In this document: positions 2,989 through 64,000 of the stretch, piece after piece
How positions within the stretch are numbered: the stretch's first letter is position 1
How the letters are laid out: every line of letters starts with the position of its first letter
Origin: Candidatus Saccharimonadota bacterium
GTDB lineage: Bacteria; Patescibacteriota; Saccharimonadia; Saccharimonadales; UBA10212
DNA length: 64,000 nucleotides
NCBI GenBank assembly: GCA_016187125.1
Contig: JACPKF010000009.1
Span: 11,855 to 75,854 of the forward strand
Direction: 5' to 3'
Position numbers and translations under genes: made by a program
The notes under the pieces: model-generated
Told to the model about the DNA's origin: nothing
The model's database searches: none
Seen by the model: only the letters and a program-made list of their open reading frames with translations

Positions 2989-3062
2989 GCCCAGTAGTAG
3001 ACTTTCGCGTATTTTACAAACTATCCGCTATAGCGGATAGTCGCGAAAGCTCACTACTGGGC
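2989..3062. repeat. nested-palindrome element, family A, copy 1
   Basis: Outer arms GCCCAGTAGTAGACTTTCGCG / CGCGAAAGCTCACTACTGGGC enclose the inner hairpin CTATCCGC-TATA-GCGGATAG. Confidence 0.85.
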
Positions 3063-3166: not shown

Positions 3167-3248
3167 AGAGGTCTGTCCTTGGAAAAAACAAAGAGATTTT
3201 TTGTAAAATCACTAAATTTTTCATATTTTTTTCCAAGGACAGACCTCT
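3167..3248. repeat. long-hairpin element, family B, copy 1
   Basis: 22-nt arms AGAGGTCTGTCCTTGGAAAAAA / TTTTTTCCAAGGACAGACCTCT. The loop carries the inner hairpin GATTTT-TTGT-AAAATC. Lies directly 3' of the PEBP gene stop. Confidence 0.85.
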
Positions 3249-4944: not shown

Positions 4945-4960
4945 ACTGCCTGACCCAGCT

Positions 4961-5016
4961 CTTAGCGCCGAGTGCTTCGCAACTATCCGCCACAGGCGGA
5001 TAGTCTCGGCGCTAAG
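4961..5016. repeat. nested palindrome, related in architecture to family A
   Basis: Outer arms CTTAGCGCCGAG / CTCGGCGCTAAG around the inner hairpin CTATCCGCC-ACA-GGCGGATAG, which has the same core as copy 1 of family A. Confidence 0.75.
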
Positions 5017-5041
5017 TGTTGGACTGATACAATACTAACTA

Positions 5042-15498: not shown

Positions 15499-15582
15499 GA
15501 GGTCTGCCCTTGCAAAAAGAAAGATAGGTAAAATCTGGTGATTTTGCGCAAAATCTCTTTACTTTTGGCAAGGGCAGACCTC
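15499..15582. repeat. long-hairpin element, family B, copy 2 (inverted relative to copy 1)
   Basis: Arms GAGGTCTGCCCTTGCAAAAAG / CTTTTGGCAAGGGCAGACCTC. The loop is the reverse complement of the copy 1 loop (AAAGAGATTTT-N4-AAAATCAC). Confidence 0.85.
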
Positions 15583-17016: not shown

Positions 17017-17092
17017 GCCCAGTAGTAGACTTTCGCGACTGTCCGCCATAAGCGGACACTTTCGCGAAGCGACGCGAAAGCTCACTACTGGG
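17017..17092. repeat. nested-palindrome element, family A, copy 2
   Basis: Left arm identical to copy 1 (GCCCAGTAGTAGACTTTCGCG), inner hairpin TGTCCGCC-ATAA-GCGGACA, right arm CGCGAAAGCTCACTACTGGG. Confidence 0.85.
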
Positions 17093-17131
17093 TTTGATAT
17101 AATTAAGCGTAAGTAATTTGGGAGACTATCA

Positions 17132-43298: not shown

Positions 43299-43646
43299 AT
43301 GACATATTCAAGCTCAGTATCATACGCTCGTCGAGGTTACGGTCGTCGTAATCAAAACGCTGTATCGCTTATGGCTACCACCAAAAGTCTTGGGCCGGTG
43401 AGCAACACAATCATCCTGATTGTTTTAGCTTGCCTAATAGGTTTGCTATACCTTACACAGGTCACCAAGACTAACAGTTACGGCTATACTATTAATGGCT
43501 TGCAAAAGCAACAAAAAGATCTGCAGCGCCAGAAGGCTGATTTAGAGATTAGCTCAGCTAGACTGCAATCACTTGAGCGCGTAGTCAATAGCAACGCTGC
43601 CAAGAGTTTAGTCTCGGTTGCGCCCTTAGGTACTATTTCCCAATAG
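43299..43646 (+). CDS. ftsL: FtsL-like bitopic division protein
   Basis: 115 aa with one TM helix then a coiled coil, located between rsmH and ftsI. Confidence 0.65.
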   Translation: MTYSSSVSYARRGYGRRNQNAVSLMATTKSLGPVSNTIILIVLACLIGLLYLTQVTKTNSYGYTINGLQKQQKDLQRQKADLEISSARLQSLERVVNSNAAKSLVSVAPLGTISQ

Positions 43647-43678
43647 TAGATTTTCCGAGCTGAAAATCTACTGTTGGG
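43639..43678. repeat. family A-like hairpin overlapping the ftsL stop
   Basis: CCCAATAGTAGATTTT-8 nt-AAAATCTACTGTTGGG. The arms resemble the family A arm CCCAGTAGTAGACTTT. Confidence 0.7.
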
Positions 43679-43788
43679 CAAGAGCTCCCAGGAACCTAAA
43701 ATTTATTAATGAATCCCGCTGCAAGTAAGTATTTTATAAAAGATAAAATCTGCCAATCCAATGGCAGTGGACCAGGACTTCTAACGGG

Positions 43789-45573
43789 ATGAATCCCAAT
43801 TTGCGTCTAAATTCACAACCAACGATTGAGTCAAGCGCCAATCGTCGTTTATGGCTATGGTACGGTATTTTGCTAGCCGTTTTAATCGTGTTTGGCGCAC
43901 GGCTTTTTTACCTGCAAATTGTCCGCCACGATTATTACCGTCAACAGGCTTTATCTAATCAGTTAAAAGAATATACGATTCCGGCAACAAGAGGTGTAAT
44001 TAAGGCTCATGAGGGAAGCCAAATAGCACCGCTGGTTTTAAACGAGAAACTCTACACTCTTTACGCCGATCCGGTTTATATTAGCGACTCCCACGCTGCG
44101 GCTAGCAAAGTGGCGGCTGTTACTCAGGCTGATGCCAAGGAATATGAAAAAGCCATGAGATCACCCAAGACTCGCTACGTAGTATTGGCTAAAAAATTGA
44201 CCGAGCAGCAGAAAAAGCAAATAGAGGCCTTAAAAATAGCTGGCATCGGGACTCAAGCTCAGGACTATCGTCTATATCCTCAAGGCACTCTGGCGGCTCA
44301 GATTTTGGGGTTTGTTAATAGCGATGGCCAAGGCAAATATGGGCTAGAGCAGGCAATGGACGGCACAATGATGGGTACGCCCGGCAAACTCAAAGCCATA
44401 ACTGATGTCAACGGCGCGCCTCTAGCTGCTAGCCGTGACAATATTCAGATCGATCCCAAAGCCGGCAAAGACATAATTTTGACCATAGAGCTTGGCATGC
44501 AAAAACAGCTCGAGACCCTGCTTAAGCAGGGTCTCGATCGGTCTAATAGTAAATCCGGCAGTGTGGTTATTATTGACCCGGGTAGCGGAGCTGTTAAAGC
44601 TATGGCCAACTGGCCGACTTACGATCCAGCCAAGTATTCGGAGGTGACCGACGCCAGTCTTTTCAATAACGGGGCCGTTAGTTCGCCGCTGGAAGTTGGT
44701 TCAATCATGAAAACCCTAACCACCAGTGCCGGACTCGATTTAGGGGTGATTAAACCAGACACTACCTACTTCGATCCGGGGCATTGGGAGCTTGACGCCC
44801 ACCAGATTACCAATGTTGAAGAAATAAGTTCCGGGACTCACTCTGTCCCAGATATAGTTAATCTATCAATCAATACCGGGGCAACTTGGATTTTAATGCA
44901 AATGGGCGGCAAAACCGGCGAGATAACGGCCACCGCCCGCGACCGCTGGTATGATTATATGGTTAACCATTTTCAGCTGGGTAAAGCCACCGGCATAGAG
45001 CAGGGCTATGAAGCTAGTGGCTATGTACCTGATCCCAATAACGGTTATGCGCTGCAGTTGACATATGCCAATACGGCTTTTGGTCAAGCTTTGACCATCA
45101 CACCGCTGCAAATGGCAGCGGCCTTGTCCAGCGTAGTTAACGGCGGAACTTATTATCGACCCTATCTGGTAGATCAAATAGTTGATGAATCTGGCAAGGT
45201 AACCGTCAACAAACCAAAAATTGTCCGCAGTAATGTAGTCTCAGCGGAGGTCGGTCGGCAGGAACGACTACTGATGGAGTATTCTTTGGCCCAGCATCAT
45301 CTTCGCCCACCATTCTCCGCCAACTACAGCGTCGGCGGTAAAACCGGCACGGCCCAGATTGCCAACCCCAACGGCGGTTACTACGACGATAGATATAACG
45401 GTACCTATCTTGGTTTTGTCGGCGGAGATAAACCGCAGTATGTCGTCATGGTACGCATTAATGAACCAAAGGTTGGCAAGTATGCTGGCAGCAGCGCCGC
45501 TCAGCCCTTATTCGCGGACATCGCTCATATGCTGATTGATAATTTTAACGTCCTACCTAAAACTGGACCATAA
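43789..45573 (+). CDS. ftsI: class B penicillin-binding protein (FtsI-type transpeptidase)
   Basis: N-terminal TM helix, PBP dimerisation region and transpeptidase motifs (SIMK as SxxK, SIN as SxN, KTGT). Confidence 0.88.
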   Translation: MNPNLRLNSQPTIESSANRRLWLWYGILLAVLIVFGARLFYLQIVRHDYYRQQALSNQLKEYTIPATRGVIKAHEGSQIAPLVLNEKLYTLYADPVYISDSHAAASKVAAVTQADAKEYEKAMRSPKTRYVVLAKKLTEQQKKQIEALKIAGIGTQAQDYRLYPQGTLAAQILGFVNSDGQGKYGLEQAMDGTMMGTPGKLKAITDVNGAPLAASRDNIQIDPKAGKDIILTIELGMQKQLETLLKQGLDRSNSKSGSVVIIDPGSGAVKAMANWPTYDPAKYSEVTDASLFNNGAVSSPLEVGSIMKTLTTSAGLDLGVIKPDTTYFDPGHWELDAHQITNVEEISSGTHSVPDIVNLSINTGATWILMQMGGKTGEITATARDRWYDYMVNHFQLGKATGIEQGYEASGYVPDPNNGYALQLTYANTAFGQALTITPLQMAAALSSVVNGGTYYRPYLVDQIVDESGKVTVNKPKIVRSNVVSAEVGRQERLLMEYSLAQHHLRPPFSANYSVGGKTGTAQIANPNGGYYDDRYNGTYLGFVGGDKPQYVVMVRINEPKVGKYAGSSAAQPLFADIAHMLIDNFNVLPKTGP

Positions 45574-49058: not shown

Positions 49059-49937
49059 ATGCGCCAAACTAGCAGAAAGACCGGTCGCCGACGACTGTTT
49101 AAGGCGCGTGGGTCTAGAGTCTTTCTTAATTACTACCGATCTTCCAAACCAGAGACATCAAGTTCTGAGCCGTCTACCCAAAAAATCTCAACTGATTGGT
49201 TAGGCAAAAAACGCCTTCTGTATAAGCTAAGAAATTTTGGGCTGCTGATCTTGCTACTTTGGCTCAGTATTCATAGCCTTATACTCCAACCCTCGCCCCA
49301 AATTTCTTTAAGTAATACGACCTACCGCAGCGCGGCTGATTATAAACAAGCTATCACGCACGAGCTGAAGTCACTTTTAAACCGCAATAAAATTACATTA
49401 AACAAAAAAGCCGTGGAGATTAAACTAAAACGGCAGTTTCCAGAAATAACCAGCCTCAGTATAAATATAGGAGTATTTTCACAAATCCCGCGAGTCAAAC
49501 TGGTCATCGACGGCCCTAGTTTTAATTTAAGCAGCGCCGCGGAAACATATGTAGTTAACGCCCAAGGTGTGGCTGTCGCCAAAAGTGCCAACTTAGCCGC
49601 CTCATCCCAGTTGCCGAATCTAATAGACCAAACGAACTTTAAAGTTGAGCTTGGTAAACAGGTGCTAGCGGCCAGCGAAGTAACTTTTATTAACAATCTA
49701 CTTGCCCAGTGCCGGCGGTCATCAGTTCCAGTAGCTTCATTAACGCTACCACCTTTGGCTCAAGAGTTAGATTTACGAACTGCCGATAAGAGTTACTTGG
49801 TGAAATTTTATTTAGGTGCAGATGCTAGCCAACAAATCGGCCAATTTTTAGCCGCCCGCCACGATTTTGATGTCCGGGGCCAGCAGCCGGCCAGTTACCT
49901 GGATGTGCGCGTACCCGGCAAAGTCTATTTTAAGTAA
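49059..49937 (+). CDS. ftsQ: FtsQ/DivIB-like division protein
   Basis: Basic N-terminus, one TM helix, POTRA-like region; last position in the dcw cluster. Confidence 0.6.
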   Translation: MRQTSRKTGRRRLFKARGSRVFLNYYRSSKPETSSSEPSTQKISTDWLGKKRLLYKLRNFGLLILLLWLSIHSLILQPSPQISLSNTTYRSAADYKQAITHELKSLLNRNKITLNKKAVEIKLKRQFPEITSLSINIGVFSQIPRVKLVIDGPSFNLSSAAETYVVNAQGVAVAKSANLAASSQLPNLIDQTNFKVELGKQVLAASEVTFINNLLAQCRRSSVPVASLTLPPLAQELDLRTADKSYLVKFYLGADASQQIGQFLAARHDFDVRGQQPASYLDVRVPGKVYFK

Positions 49938-51357
49938 TTTTTTCTCTTGCCAACTTATCACTAATGCCGAACCAACCAACGGCGGCGCTAAATAGTGCCA
50001 GGCCAGCGACCGACCACATAGCTACTTGGTAACCGTGATGTGATGCTTGGCGCAGGCTAGGGGACTGTTGGTGCAGGTCCAAAGGCACAGCCGACTTGTC
50101 GGTGGTTGAGCTGGCAAAAATGATCGAAATTATCATTCCAGCGATAGCAATAACGATAAGTCCGCCGATACGGGCGACGGTGTTGTTAAGACCTGAAGCT
50201 ATACCGGCGAATTTAGAAGGCACTGACTTCAAGGCAGTGGTAGTTATGGGTGCAACTATCATAGCTAGGCCCAACGAAAATAAGACTATGCCAAGACTGC
50301 CGCGCAGCCAAATATCGTTTTTTGAATTAATAATCGAAAATAGCAGGCTGCCGGCGGCGATCAAGACCGGCCCAACGGACAGTAGCATTCTGGGGCCATG
50401 TAGATCCGCCAGGCCGCCAAAATAGCGGGCCAGAGCGATCAGGACCAGGCTGGTGGGTACCAGGAACAAGCTGGAGCTAAGCGGTGTCAGGCCCAAGAAC
50501 TGCAGATAAAGCGTGAAATAAATAAAAACGCCGTTCAAGGCTCCATAGAGCAGCAATGTCTCCAGATTCGAAAAACTAAAATTGCGAATTTTGAAAAATT
50601 TGAATGGCAGCATCGGATGCCGGCTCTTTAGCTCTACCGCCACGAAGGCGGCTAAGCTGACTCCACCTATTAGCAGTGTCCACCACAGGCGGCTAAAACC
50701 GGTCTTGGCCCCCTCGACCAGATAGTAGGTCAAAAAACCGAAGCCGGAAGCAATAAGCAGGGAACCGGGTATATCCAGCGGTGTCGGCTCGGCCTCCTTC
50801 TCTTTATCGGGAACAGCCTGCGCCGACCAGTAAATAATAAGAAAGGCCAGGGGCAGATTGATGTAAAAAATATAACGCCAGGAGAGCCACTGGGTCAGGG
50901 CACCGCCAAGCGGCGGCGCTATAACGGTTGAAATACCCGTCAGTGCCGTCCAAAGACCGATGGCTTTGCCGGCGTGATCGCCGTAGACGCTCCTAAGCCA
51001 TGCCAAGCTGTTAGTAGTAACAAAAGCTCCACCTATGCCCTGTAGTACCCTGGCAACTATAATTACGGCTGCATTAGGTGCCAGGCCGGCCAAGACTGAG
51101 GCTAGGGCAAAGCCGATCACTCCATAGTTAAATATTTTTCGGCGGCCGTATCTATCACCTAAAGCGCCGCCGACGAGATATAAAGCGGCTAGCGACAATG
51201 AATAAGACAAAAAGATCCATTGCTCGCCAGCTAAGCCCAGATTTAGGGCTTTTTGCATCGTGGGTAAGGCAACGATCACGGCCGTACCATCAATGAAGGC
51301 TAACGAGGAGCCCAATGCTGTAGCAGCCAGAGTATACTGCCTCTTACTAAGCGCCAT
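49930..51357 (-). CDS. MFS transporter (14-TMS drug:H+ antiporter-like)
   Basis: 475 aa with ~14 TM helices and an MFS motif GALGDRYGRRK. Its stop overlaps the ftsQ stop (convergent). Confidence 0.85.
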   Translation of the reverse strand: MALSKRQYTLAATALGSSLAFIDGTAVIVALPTMQKALNLGLAGEQWIFLSYSLSLAALYLVGGALGDRYGRRKIFNYGVIGFALASVLAGLAPNAAVIIVARVLQGIGGAFVTTNSLAWLRSVYGDHAGKAIGLWTALTGISTVIAPPLGGALTQWLSWRYIFYINLPLAFLIIYWSAQAVPDKEKEAEPTPLDIPGSLLIASGFGFLTYYLVEGAKTGFSRLWWTLLIGGVSLAAFVAVELKSRHPMLPFKFFKIRNFSFSNLETLLLYGALNGVFIYFTLYLQFLGLTPLSSSLFLVPTSLVLIALARYFGGLADLHGPRMLLSVGPVLIAAGSLLFSIINSKNDIWLRGSLGIVLFSLGLAMIVAPITTTALKSVPSKFAGIASGLNNTVARIGGLIVIAIAGMIISIIFASSTTDKSAVPLDLHQQSPSLRQASHHGYQVAMWSVAGLALFSAAVGWFGISDKLAREKIT

Positions 51358-51726
51358 AAAATAGAGTATACTCCTCTTGCCTAGTTCGTTTTTTGTTCAT
51401 TTCGTATAATTTTTGTCTTACAAAAAAACATATAATAATGCCAGAGTAGGGGAATGTCAAATATAACTGCCAAATAGGCAAAGTAGGGGAAATATATAAA
51501 AAGAAATGAAAGACCCAAAAGTCAAATGTTTATAGTGAGCTTATGCAGCTGTGGATAACTATAAGACTTTTCACAGGATTTTTTACATCAGGCTATGGTT
51601 AGCCGATAGCAATGCGGCAATTGAATTTAGAGGGACAGTAGCAGTGAATAAAATCAGTCGAATGCGTCTTCATCCAATAACTTCCCCTTTAGGGAGGTAA
51701 TAGTACTGAGCACCACTTATAGACAA

Positions 51727-55405: not shown

Positions 55406-55528
55406 AGTCAAGTCCAGTGGAATAGTTTAGCCTGCGGCTAAAATTCCACGGACTTGTCCCATGGAATTCCACCTCTGGTGGACTAATTTGTGAAAACAAA
55501 TTCGATTCCATTGGGACAGCCCTTGACT
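55406..55528. other. twin nested-hairpin structured element (ncRNA or protein-binding cruciform candidate)
   Basis: Outer AGTCAAG/CTTGACT. Unit 1: GTCCAGTGGAAT[TTTAGCC-TGC-GGCTAAA]ATTCCACGGAC. Unit 2: GTCCCATGGAAT[TCCACC-TCT-GGTGGA, AATTTGT-GAAA-ACAAATT]ATTCCATTGGGAC. Confidence 0.5.
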
Positions 55529-59460: not shown

Positions 59461-59689
59461 AATCTTAAACAACTTATTCCCTTTAACTCCTCGCCCGCAA
59501 AAATTTCTTTGAAATTTCGGCGGGTCCTCAACGTGGGTAGACATGCGAGCTCACGCTCGCGTTCCATCGGGCTTGCCTGGTGGACGGCGCTAGACCTTAG
59601 CTTTTCGCGGGTTATTAGATTGCTTTGTCGATGGTGGGGTTGAAGGGTGTAAATTGGGCTTGATTCGCCAGCTGGCGAATCGAGCCCGC

Positions 59690-59737
59690 AATGAACCTCC
59701 AGCGGTGCCCACCCCCTCTGGAGGTTCATTGTTTTCT
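59690..59737 (+). terminator. terminator-like hairpin
   Basis: AATGAACCTCCAG-15 nt-CTGGAGGTTCATT (13-bp perfect stem) followed by GTTTTCT. Confidence 0.55.
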
Positions 59738-62822: not shown

Positions 62823-64000
62823 TTATTTTTTGTCGATGAACCAGAATTTAAGGGGGGTGCCGTTTAAGGGCCAAACAGCCCTGAAACTCTTTTCAAGATA
62901 GCGTTTGTAGCTCCAGTGCAGGAATTTAGTCTTTGAGCCAAAGACTTTAAAGCTGGGCATCCCGGAGTTGTCTTCTTGAACAATGTAGTTGAGTTTTGGC
63001 AACTTACCGCGCAAACCGGCCGGTGGGTGCTGGTTGACTGTATGTTGCAGCCAACGGTTTAGCTCCGGAGTTTTAAATCGCAGCCCGCGGCTCTTGGCAA
63101 TTTCCAGAACTAGGTCAAAGATTTTAGCTACATTTTGGCCGGTGGTTGCGCTGGTGAAGATCAGCGGTGCCCAGGGCACAAAGTTGAAACTCTCAGCAAT
63201 TTGGGCTGCCAAATGGTCTTTAGTAAAGCTATCTTTTTCGACCTGGTCCCATTTACTGACGACCAATATTAGGCCATTGCCGGCATCTTTTATCAGTCCG
63301 GCAATTTTTTGGTCCAGCTGAACATTAAGCTCCCGGCCGTCCATAATCAGCAGGCTAATATCTGATTGCTCTATGGCAGCCAGCGCCCGCAGGATGCTGA
63401 ATTGTTCCACGCCTCGCTCTATTTTACCGCTGCGCCGAATACCGGCGGTATCCATAAGTTCAATCTCTTTTGCTTTAAAACGGACTATCGCCCGATTAAC
63501 GTCCCTTGTGGTTCCAGCTTTCTCCGCCACGATGGCCTGCCCCAGTGGAATCGGAGTTTCAAAAACTCCGGCCCGCCCGAGGCGGGCATCCCACGGGGCT
63601 TGTTGTTTTTTAGCCAAAGCGTTAAACAGACTGGATTTGCCGACGTTAGGCCGGCCCAGCAGTGATAAATGAATCCGTGATGAATCACTGCCGATTTTCG
63701 CCTGCGGCAGTTGAGTAGCGATGGCTGACAGGAGGTCGTCTAGGCCTCTTTTTTGAGTCGCGGATGTAGGCATAATTTGTTTTATGCCCAGCTTTCGCCA
63801 TCCATCCAAGTCACGTTTTAGATTCTTATCTATTTTGTTGACAACCAAGATCACCGGCTTCCGGCTTTTTAGGGCAAGCTTGGCTACCCGTCGGTCTTCC
63901 TCGGTCGGTGGCACGTCGGCCTCAACTACAACTACAATTAAAGTAGCGCTATCGGCCGCCTGTTTGATCTGGTCTTGGATACTGAGCTCAAATTCATCCT
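62823..64000 (-). CDS. der: ribosome-biogenesis GTPase Der/EngA, N-terminus beyond the window
   Basis: The frame stays open to nt 64000. Second GTPase domain (GRPNVGKSS, DTAG, SKWD) plus a KH-like C-terminus. A 21-aa insertion lies between G1 and G2. Confidence 0.9.
   Translation of the reverse strand, partial: DEFELSIQDQIKQAADSATLIVVVVEADVPPTEEDRRVAKLALKSRKPVILVVNKIDKNLKRDLDGWRKLGIKQIMPTSATQKRGLDDLLSAIATQLPQAKIGSDSSRIHLSLLGRPNVGKSSLFNALAKKQQAPWDARLGRAGVFETPIPLGQAIVAEKAGTTRDVNRAIVRFKAKEIELMDTAGIRRSGKIERGVEQFSILRALAAIEQSDISLLIMDGRELNVQLDQKIAGLIKDAGNGLILVVSKWDQVEKDSFTKDHLAAQIAESFNFVPWAPLIFTSATTGQNVAKIFDLVLEIAKSRGLRFKTPELNRWLQHTVNQHPPAGLRGKLPKLNYIVQEDNSGMPSFKVFGSKTKFLHWSYKRYLEKSFRAVWPLNGTPLKFWFIDKK

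Follow-up and report, generated by a model that had tools for sequence, protein, structure and literature searches.

A probable MITE-like palindromic element in frame in the gene of the Saccharibacteria GTPase Der

The der (engA) gene of the Saccharibacteria genome studied here, which encodes the ribosome-assembly GTPase Der, carries a lineage-specific 63-nt in-frame insertion, probably one copy of a very small MITE-like selfish element, palindromic and non-autonomous, that the protein tolerates in a permissive loop. The gene is located on the minus strand at 62823-64000 of the window (the whole 64,000-nt stretch of DNA that was analysed), which holds its 3' part and stop codon; its 5' end lies beyond the window. 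The insertion occupies 63537-63599 (minus strand), in the second GTPase domain (GD2). A preliminary description of this DNA had pointed it out as a 63-nt in-frame insertion with two abutting perfect hairpins, and both the coordinates and the perfection of the hairpins were confirmed. It had also taken the segment for palindromic-element DNA residing in frame in an essential gene, and copies of the same family were indeed found in a spacer of the window and in other genomes.

The full-length Der protein of the window genome contains 458 residues (P0001) and matches a Candidatus Saccharibacteria EngA with 100% identity. Its GD2 reads GKSSLFNALAKKQQ[APWDARLGRAGVFETPIPLGQ]AIVAEKAGTTRD, where the bracketed APWDARLGRAGVFETPIPLGQ is the 21-residue insert. 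The insert is positioned as KKQQ[APWDARLGRAGVFETPIPLGQ]AIVAEK, between the G1 motif and the G2 motif GTTRD. The spacing from GKS to TTR is 22 residues in 150 of 155 full-length Der relatives and 43 residues in the window Der. The insert is absent from 116 of the 120 closest Der proteins (typical length 437 residues), and an alignment of the window Der to the B. subtilis Der structures opens a 21-residue gap exactly at this position. Comparison of the orthologues therefore revealed a presence/absence polymorphism, with the insert missing from most relatives. Five further sequencing runs (L005-L009) independently assembled identical DNA, insert included, and the insertion is thus not an assembly artefact; annotators who meet such inserts in metagenome-assembled genomes should take them as real, not as assembly errors. 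The gene neighbourhood (response regulator, der, purA, pth) is the same in the window genome and in an insert-less relative, which identifies the window der as the orthologous copy. At the protein level, QQAPWDAR and AGVFETPIPLGQAIVAEK are candidate tryptic peptides across the insert junction.

An AlphaFold model of the window Der (mean pLDDT 73) locates insert residues 201-221 within a low-confidence stretch, 198-232, with a pLDDT of about 30. This stretch is flanked by a helix (188-197) and a strand (235-241) and lies eight residues ahead of GTTRD. The equivalent switch I in the first GTPase domain (GD1) is modelled with equally low confidence. The extra residues are predicted by the model to fall in the disordered segment that links helix α1 to switch I in GD2, in agreement with the earlier suggestion that the insertion is next to switch I. 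GD2 switch I is disordered in the crystals of B. subtilis EngA and was proposed to be a K+-binding loop in the active state only (PMC3466195). The five insert-bearing der alleles described below provide a natural experiment on the extra sequence that the α1/switch I linker of GD2 accepts.

The preliminary description considered the two hairpins to be the unit. The hairpins are real, but the unit comprises three helices, including a conserved terminal stem of 12 bp. On the basis of sequence and folding, the core palindromic element comprises 61 nt (63539-63599, minus strand) and forms a junction of three helices. The core and one copy of the duplicated target account for the 63-nt, 21-residue insertion. 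In the sense orientation, inner hairpin 1 (63571-63587) is GCCCGCC-TCG-GGCGGGC with 7 perfect base pairs, and inner hairpin 2 (63552-63570) is CGGAGTTT-TTG-AAACTCCG with 8 perfect base pairs. On the forward strand, the same abutting hairpins read CGGAGTTT-CAA-AAACTCCG (63552-63570) and GCCCGCC-CGA-GGCGGGC (63571-63587). A third helix of 12 bp, GCCCCGTGGGAT/ATTCCACTGGGGC, encloses both of them, and the 61-nt core is fully paired and Y-shaped. The 5' arm of this outer stem (sense GCCCCGTGGGAT, 63588-63599, minus strand) is a conserved terminal inverted repeat and encodes APWD. The 3' arm (sense ATTCCACTGGGGC, 63539-63551, minus strand) contains one bulged T and codes for IPLG and the first base (C) of the Gln221 codon.

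Folded as DNA, the 61-nt core has z-scores of -6.9 in the sense and -6.5 in the antisense orientation, and none of 200 shuffled sequences folds as well. The RNA fold of the element in its 101-nt context has an energy of -48.7 kcal/mol (z = -3.85). A search of Rfam 15 with nine element-carrying loci, the der locus L005 among them, gave no match at E <= 1. In 29 two-hairpin copies of the element family, 16 G·U pairs are found on one strand and 17 on the other, and the folding energies of the two strands are equal. Since an RNA motif is normally asymmetric in this respect, the lack of G·U strand asymmetry points to a palindrome at the DNA level rather than an RNA motif.

The insert recurs in other lineages. 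A profile built from four insert-bearing Der proteins (P0001, P0005, P0006 and P0010) was scored on 8000 candidates, which were cluster representatives. Only five of the roughly 8000 related proteins scored bear an insert, in every case at the same codon and in the same orientation, and by this measure the der insert is rare among related Der proteins. The four proteins used to build the profile lead the best insert-less Der by about 50 bits or more; the profile also revealed the fifth bearer, P0157, further down the ranking with 815 bits. When a local profile of 58 residues covering the insert region was used in a protein search, it retrieved nothing but short Der fragments that lack the insert. 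With the insert left out of the comparison, each bearer shares 76-86% identity with insert-less proteins and only 68-76% with the other bearers, and the residues flanking the insert track the host lineage. Judged by these identities, the five bearers are separate lineages, each with closer insert-less relatives.

The five der inserts are 63, 60, 54, 54 and 54 nt long, all multiples of three without a stop codon. They share one fold with a nearly invariant outer stem, and their inner hairpins differ between alleles via compensatory changes. Hairpins 1 and 2 are GCCCGCC/GGCGGGC and CGGAGTTT/AAACTCCG in the window allele, GCCAG/CTGGC and CGGA/TCTG in L001, GCCCGC/GCGGGC and CGGTTC/GAACCG in L002, and GCTCGC/GCGAGC and CGGC/GCCG in L003. 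In four gap-free aligned copies of 52 nt, 96.6% of the cells are paired and five pairs are changed on both sides. None of 500 shuffles reached the observed covariation, and slid alignments pair 24-43%. The middle of the insert-encoded peptide is not conserved among the der inserts. The comparison of the alleles indicates that constraint, or common origin, acts on the palindrome and not on the peptide.

The borders of the insertion contain a direct repeat of 5 nt. The upstream repeat (sense CAAGC, 63598-63602, minus strand) overlaps the end of the element, the downstream repeat is CAGGC (63535-63539, minus strand), and both lie in Gln-Ala codons. The empty der allele in L004 has a single CAGGC in the context AAA CAA CAG GCC, and the filled alleles read CAR GCC-[element]-CAG GCN, with CARGC on both sides. 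In most two-hairpin copies the left and right end pentamers are equal and co-vary (CTGGC/CTGGC, CAAGC/CAAGC, CAGGC/CAGGC); the two intergenic copies in the window have no clear CWRGC repeat. The filled and empty der sites fit a 5-bp target duplication of CAGGC at a CWRGC site. The empty der gene has 16 CWRGC sites, and most of the others fall within G motifs or within the β-strands and helices of the core; the insertion site is the only one placed in the α1/switch I linker. Probably no other CWRGC site in der tolerates an insertion, which would explain the recurrence at the same codon. Because thousands of lineages were sampled, exceptional targeting is not needed for repeated survival at one der site. 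A high target specificity for this codon is conceivable, and an old insertion that was precisely lost many times could likewise account for the recurrence.

A relaxed search found three copies of the element in the 64-kb window, including an adjoining pair in one spacer at 55410-55517. One member of the pair (55456-55517, plus strand) has two hairpins and consists of GTCCCATGGAAT, hairpin TCCACC/GGTGGA, hairpin AATTTGT/ACAAATT and ATTCCATTGGGAC (DNA fold z = -6.2). The other (55410-55455, plus strand) is a one-hairpin relative, with AAGTCCAGTGGAAT, one hairpin and ATTCCACGGACTT (DNA fold z = -8.5). The copies in the window have the outer stem and the architecture in common, not the inner hairpins. 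Inner hairpin 1 of der belongs to an over-represented CCGCC...GGCGG type: eight hairpins of the form CCGCC-N3-5-GGCGG are present in the window and 0.15 are expected. One of them belongs to der and two to another ORF; the remaining five do not fall in long ORFs, four being located in spacers and one at the start of an ORF. The statement in the preliminary description that the same GC hairpin type occurs in spacers is thus correct for the type, but the exact inner hairpins of der are not repeated elsewhere in the window.

In a scan of one genome per species with the pattern GCCCNNTGGRAT-N15-45-ATTCCANNRGGGC, 75 loci were retrieved, compared with a rough chance expectation of about 34. The outer stem with two abutting hairpins is present in about half of them. 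Because the stem sequence is prescribed by the pattern, its conservation across phyla is in part a product of the search. At least six exact-pattern loci are present in one Balneolaceae genome, and structured matches were found in several Cloacimonadota genomes and in several Desulfobacterales genomes, in the latter often as a 40-nt one-loop form. Single structured matches come from a bin labelled archaeon, a Rickettsiales genome and three candidate-phyla-radiation (CPR) genomes. The multi-copy sets of Balneolaceae and Cloacimonadota are intergenic. In another Saccharibacteria genome (L037), the element is in frame in the Pro/Ser/Gly-rich C-terminal tail of a 1006-residue TraG/VirD4-like ATPase, with hairpins similar to those of the L003 and L093 der inserts. 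The family has a terminal inverted repeat of 12-13 nt, GCCCnnTGGAAT ... ATTCCAnnnGGGC, which is kept in all copies and encloses one or two variable hairpins; the core measures 52-61 nt, and the element has no transposase of its own. Among the family members in spacers, the lengths fall in all three classes modulo three. The signature GCCCnnTGGAAT-hairpin(s)-ATTCCAnnnGGGC together with the CWRGC repeat can be used for a census of the family and for the search for a mobilising enzyme.

Removal of the core and one repeat from the Balneolaceae copies and from L037 leaves a simple hairpin, TCCGCC-loop-GGCGGA, and hairpins of this type also stand alone in spacers of the window. The sequences suggest nesting of elements by insertion into hairpin loops.

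A pattern scan of metagenomes retrieved only seven loci, including one duplicate der allele (L089) and L088. In L088 (1-460), a copy lies just upstream of an ORF part that matches only the C-terminal two thirds of HATPase_c, and it is flanked by a 19-nt direct repeat, TAAGTCAAGTCCGACAAGA; L088 is probably a disrupted histidine-kinase gene and not a clean in-frame case. A scan of viral contigs gave one chance-like match, a plasmid BLAST gave none, and a literature text search for the stem sequences returned only unrelated PCR primers. A few loci have unusual surroundings. In L020 (2955-3196, Ignavibacteriales), the 40-nt one-loop stem version is present in tandem, as three identical copies that are spaced by about 100 nt and also have the same flanks. 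L022, L034 and L059 (Desulfobacterales / Deltaproteobacteria) have a second, partial stem copy directly beside the matched copy. In L055, L062 and L085 (Balneolaceae / Fodinibius), about 40 nt of flank on each side of the element is conserved between species, and in these genomes the element may lie within conserved non-coding DNA.

These data can be combined in a model of the origin of the insert. The element probably integrated into der at the pentamer CAGGC (codons Gln200-Ala201) and duplicated it. The element and the duplication add up to a multiple of three without a stop codon, so der stays open, and the element would be translated. The 18-21 extra residues land in the intrinsically disordered α1/switch I linker of GD2 and would be neutral to Der. 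Transposition would be provided in trans by some mobilising enzyme, and slippage between the 5-nt repeats could lead to precise loss. Clustering of the neighbouring ORFs across 44 loci gave no shared neighbouring gene or candidate transposase.

The family resembles bacterial MITEs, which are small and non-coding, have terminal inverted repeats and a target-site duplication, are intergenic with occasional in-frame intragenic copies, and are presumed to be mobilised in trans (PMC2229807). Small size, terminal inverted repeats and target-site duplication were all found here, although the duplication is not evident for the two intergenic window copies. Compared with Correia/NEMIS, ERIC and YPAL, the element is two to three times shorter, GC-rich instead of AT-rich, and flanked by a 5-nt CWRGC repeat instead of TA; its inner part varies between copies, and no parent insertion sequence is known. 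That the inner hairpins differ between the copies in the window genome speaks against the MITE reading, as it would be unusual for a recently amplified MITE.

In-frame insertions of palindromic or MITE sequences are known for Rickettsia palindromic elements (RPE), Correia/NEMIS (107 bp), ERIC (127 bp) and YPAL (168 bp) (PMC10969869, PMC2229807). RPEs are about 150 bp long, come from Rickettsia genomes and each encode a conserved peptide (PMC10969869). Like the der element, they are repetitive palindromic sequences that occur both in spacers and, in frame, within conserved and often essential protein genes (Ogata et al. 2000 and 2002, summarised in PMC10969869 and PMC2229807), and in both cases tolerance is ascribed to landing in permissive parts of proteins. 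The occurrence in frame in der (five alleles) and in the TraG-like gene, and in the spacer at 55410-55517, bears out the analogy to RPEs drawn in the preliminary description, though the family differs. The der element is a GC-rich three-helix junction of 52-61 nt, only its stem-encoded ends are conserved, and by pattern match it occurs in Saccharibacteria and several other phyla, at the same codon in five lineages. The element family is new and not RPE, set apart by the described size and peptide of RPEs. It extends selfish palindromes inside protein genes beyond Rickettsia and enterobacteria to the reduced-genome Saccharibacteria, with an element much smaller than the known ones. REP/REPIN sequences, which RAYT transposases mobilise, are also very short repeated palindromes in which the structure and not the full sequence is conserved, and like the der element they may be recognised as folded single strands; REPs lie outside genes, begin with a conserved GTAG head and are associated with a RAYT gene (PMC3116915). 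None of these three features was seen for the der element: there is no GTAG at its ends, no common flanking gene, and intragenic copies exist.

Other explanations have to be weighed against the MITE-like element. A broader possibility, to which we give limited weight, is that the element represents an undescribed, structure-defined family of mobile DNA that crosses phyla. The hallmarks of such a family would be a junction of three fully paired helices, a 12-bp stem that is conserved and has its bulge at a fixed position, and the duplication of 5 bp at CWRGC. An unrecognised enzyme would move the element, which would integrate into hairpin loops as well as coding DNA and would have repeatedly colonised the switch I codon of Saccharibacteria Der, where its structure is perhaps actively maintained in the gene.

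It is unlikely that the inserts go back to one ancient insertion in the Saccharibacteria ancestor, inherited vertically, kept for a function (an mRNA structure that modulates how der is translated or how stable its message is, or a switch I extension of adaptive value) and then precisely lost in most lineages. The identical site and orientation in all five bearers would be expected from such an origin, and the flanking direct repeats of 5-6 nt permit precise deletion. The inserts of L003 and L093 are also more conserved than their hosts: they are identical at 47 of 52 positions (90%), and the host genes are 72% identical at the nucleotide level and 76% at the protein level. The five differences, three of which are nonsynonymous, affect one compensatory outer-stem pair and three loop positions and are structure-neutral only. 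However, with five bearers among about 8000 proteins, scattered among closer insert-less relatives, a very large number of independent precise losses would be needed. The variable middle of the encoded peptide, the absence of the G·U strand asymmetry expected of an RNA element, and the presence of the same architecture in spacers and in another gene also argue against it.

The high similarity of the L003 and L093 inserts in host proteins of only 76% identity, each with closer insert-less relatives, could alternatively result from lateral transfer between der alleles followed by homologous recombination, a passive, homing-like gene conversion instead of transposition. The flank in P0010 is AIVSER, in contrast to AIVADR in its nearest relatives, which is consistent with such an exchange. 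However, the DNA next to the two inserts is about 72% identical over 36 nt downstream, no higher than the gene average, and no co-conversion tract is visible. The remaining three inserts have quite different inner hairpins. Gene conversion is therefore an improbable source of the inserts.

In T4 gene 60 and the byp elements of yeast mitochondria, short GC-rich hairpin inserts are located in coding sequence between matching codons and are bypassed in translation. A bypassed insert can have any length modulo three and usually includes stop codons. The der inserts are likewise GC-rich hairpins between matching codons: the same Ala codon family is present at both borders (GCC, then GCC, GCA or GCT), with a strong hairpin right after the first. 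Programmed bypassing of the 63 nt, or their removal from the mRNA, is nevertheless very unlikely. All five inserts are open and in frame, which neither bypassing nor splicing requires and which has a chance of about (1/3)^5. No stop codon follows the first border GCC codon, the putative take-off codon; as read from the sequence, the flanks do not pair and form no bulge-helix-bulge motif; and the Rfam 15 search gave no match to a ribozyme or intron family. Since five of five inserts are in frame and open, no stop follows the border codon and the flanks are unpaired, the der insert is likely translated.

Switch I loops of GTPases vary in length, and an ordinary protein-level loop insertion that is palindromic by chance, or an assembly or chimera artefact, could be considered; given fold z-scores of -6 to -7, compensatory changes that keep three helices in five alleles, the same architecture in non-coding DNA and identical DNA in six independent assemblies, we regard this as hardly credible.

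Several other identities were examined and rejected. The junction has no unpaired conserved core as in a hammerhead or other ribozyme, no RYYYAAC/GTTRRRY boxes of an integron attC site are present, and the unpaired flanks are not those of a bulge-helix-bulge intron. An intein would require a nucleophile at the junctions, which is lacking, and the insert is far too short. The likeness of CAGTGGAA to the Tn3 inverted repeat was judged coincidental.

The window contains additional palindromes. Two CCGCC-loop-GGCGG hairpins (50637-50651 and 50903-50916) are inside a 488-residue ORF (49933-51396, minus strand). A second nested intergenic family, with the outer stem GCCCAGTAGTAGACTTTCGCG/CGCGAAAGCTCACTACTGGGC around inner GC hairpins, occurs at 2989-3062 and 17017-17093 and partly at 43633-43684. 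A third spacer family of about 76-80 nt, GGTCTGYCCTTG...CAAGGRCAGACC, is found at 3170-3245 and 15501-15580. One inner hairpin module, ACTATCCGC(C)-loop-(G)GCGGATAGT, is shared by the palindromes at 4955-5022 and 2989-3062, although their outer stems differ; this suggests modular nesting of small hairpins. A perfect 50-nt palindrome without a spacer (25+25, TTTACTCCCCTATTCCTATATTCTA/TAGAATATAGGAATAGGGGAGTAAA) is located at 2004-2053, outside any long ORF. The perfect 12-bp hairpin TCGAGACCCTGC-TTAA-GCAGGGTCTCGA at 44510-44537 encodes LETLLKQGLD in a 608-residue ORF (43747-45570, plus strand) and is possibly a further palindrome inside a gene. Two adjacent long hairpins at 59656-59732 give the window its most stable local fold (-56 kcal/mol), with no long ORF across them (the longest has 110 residues).
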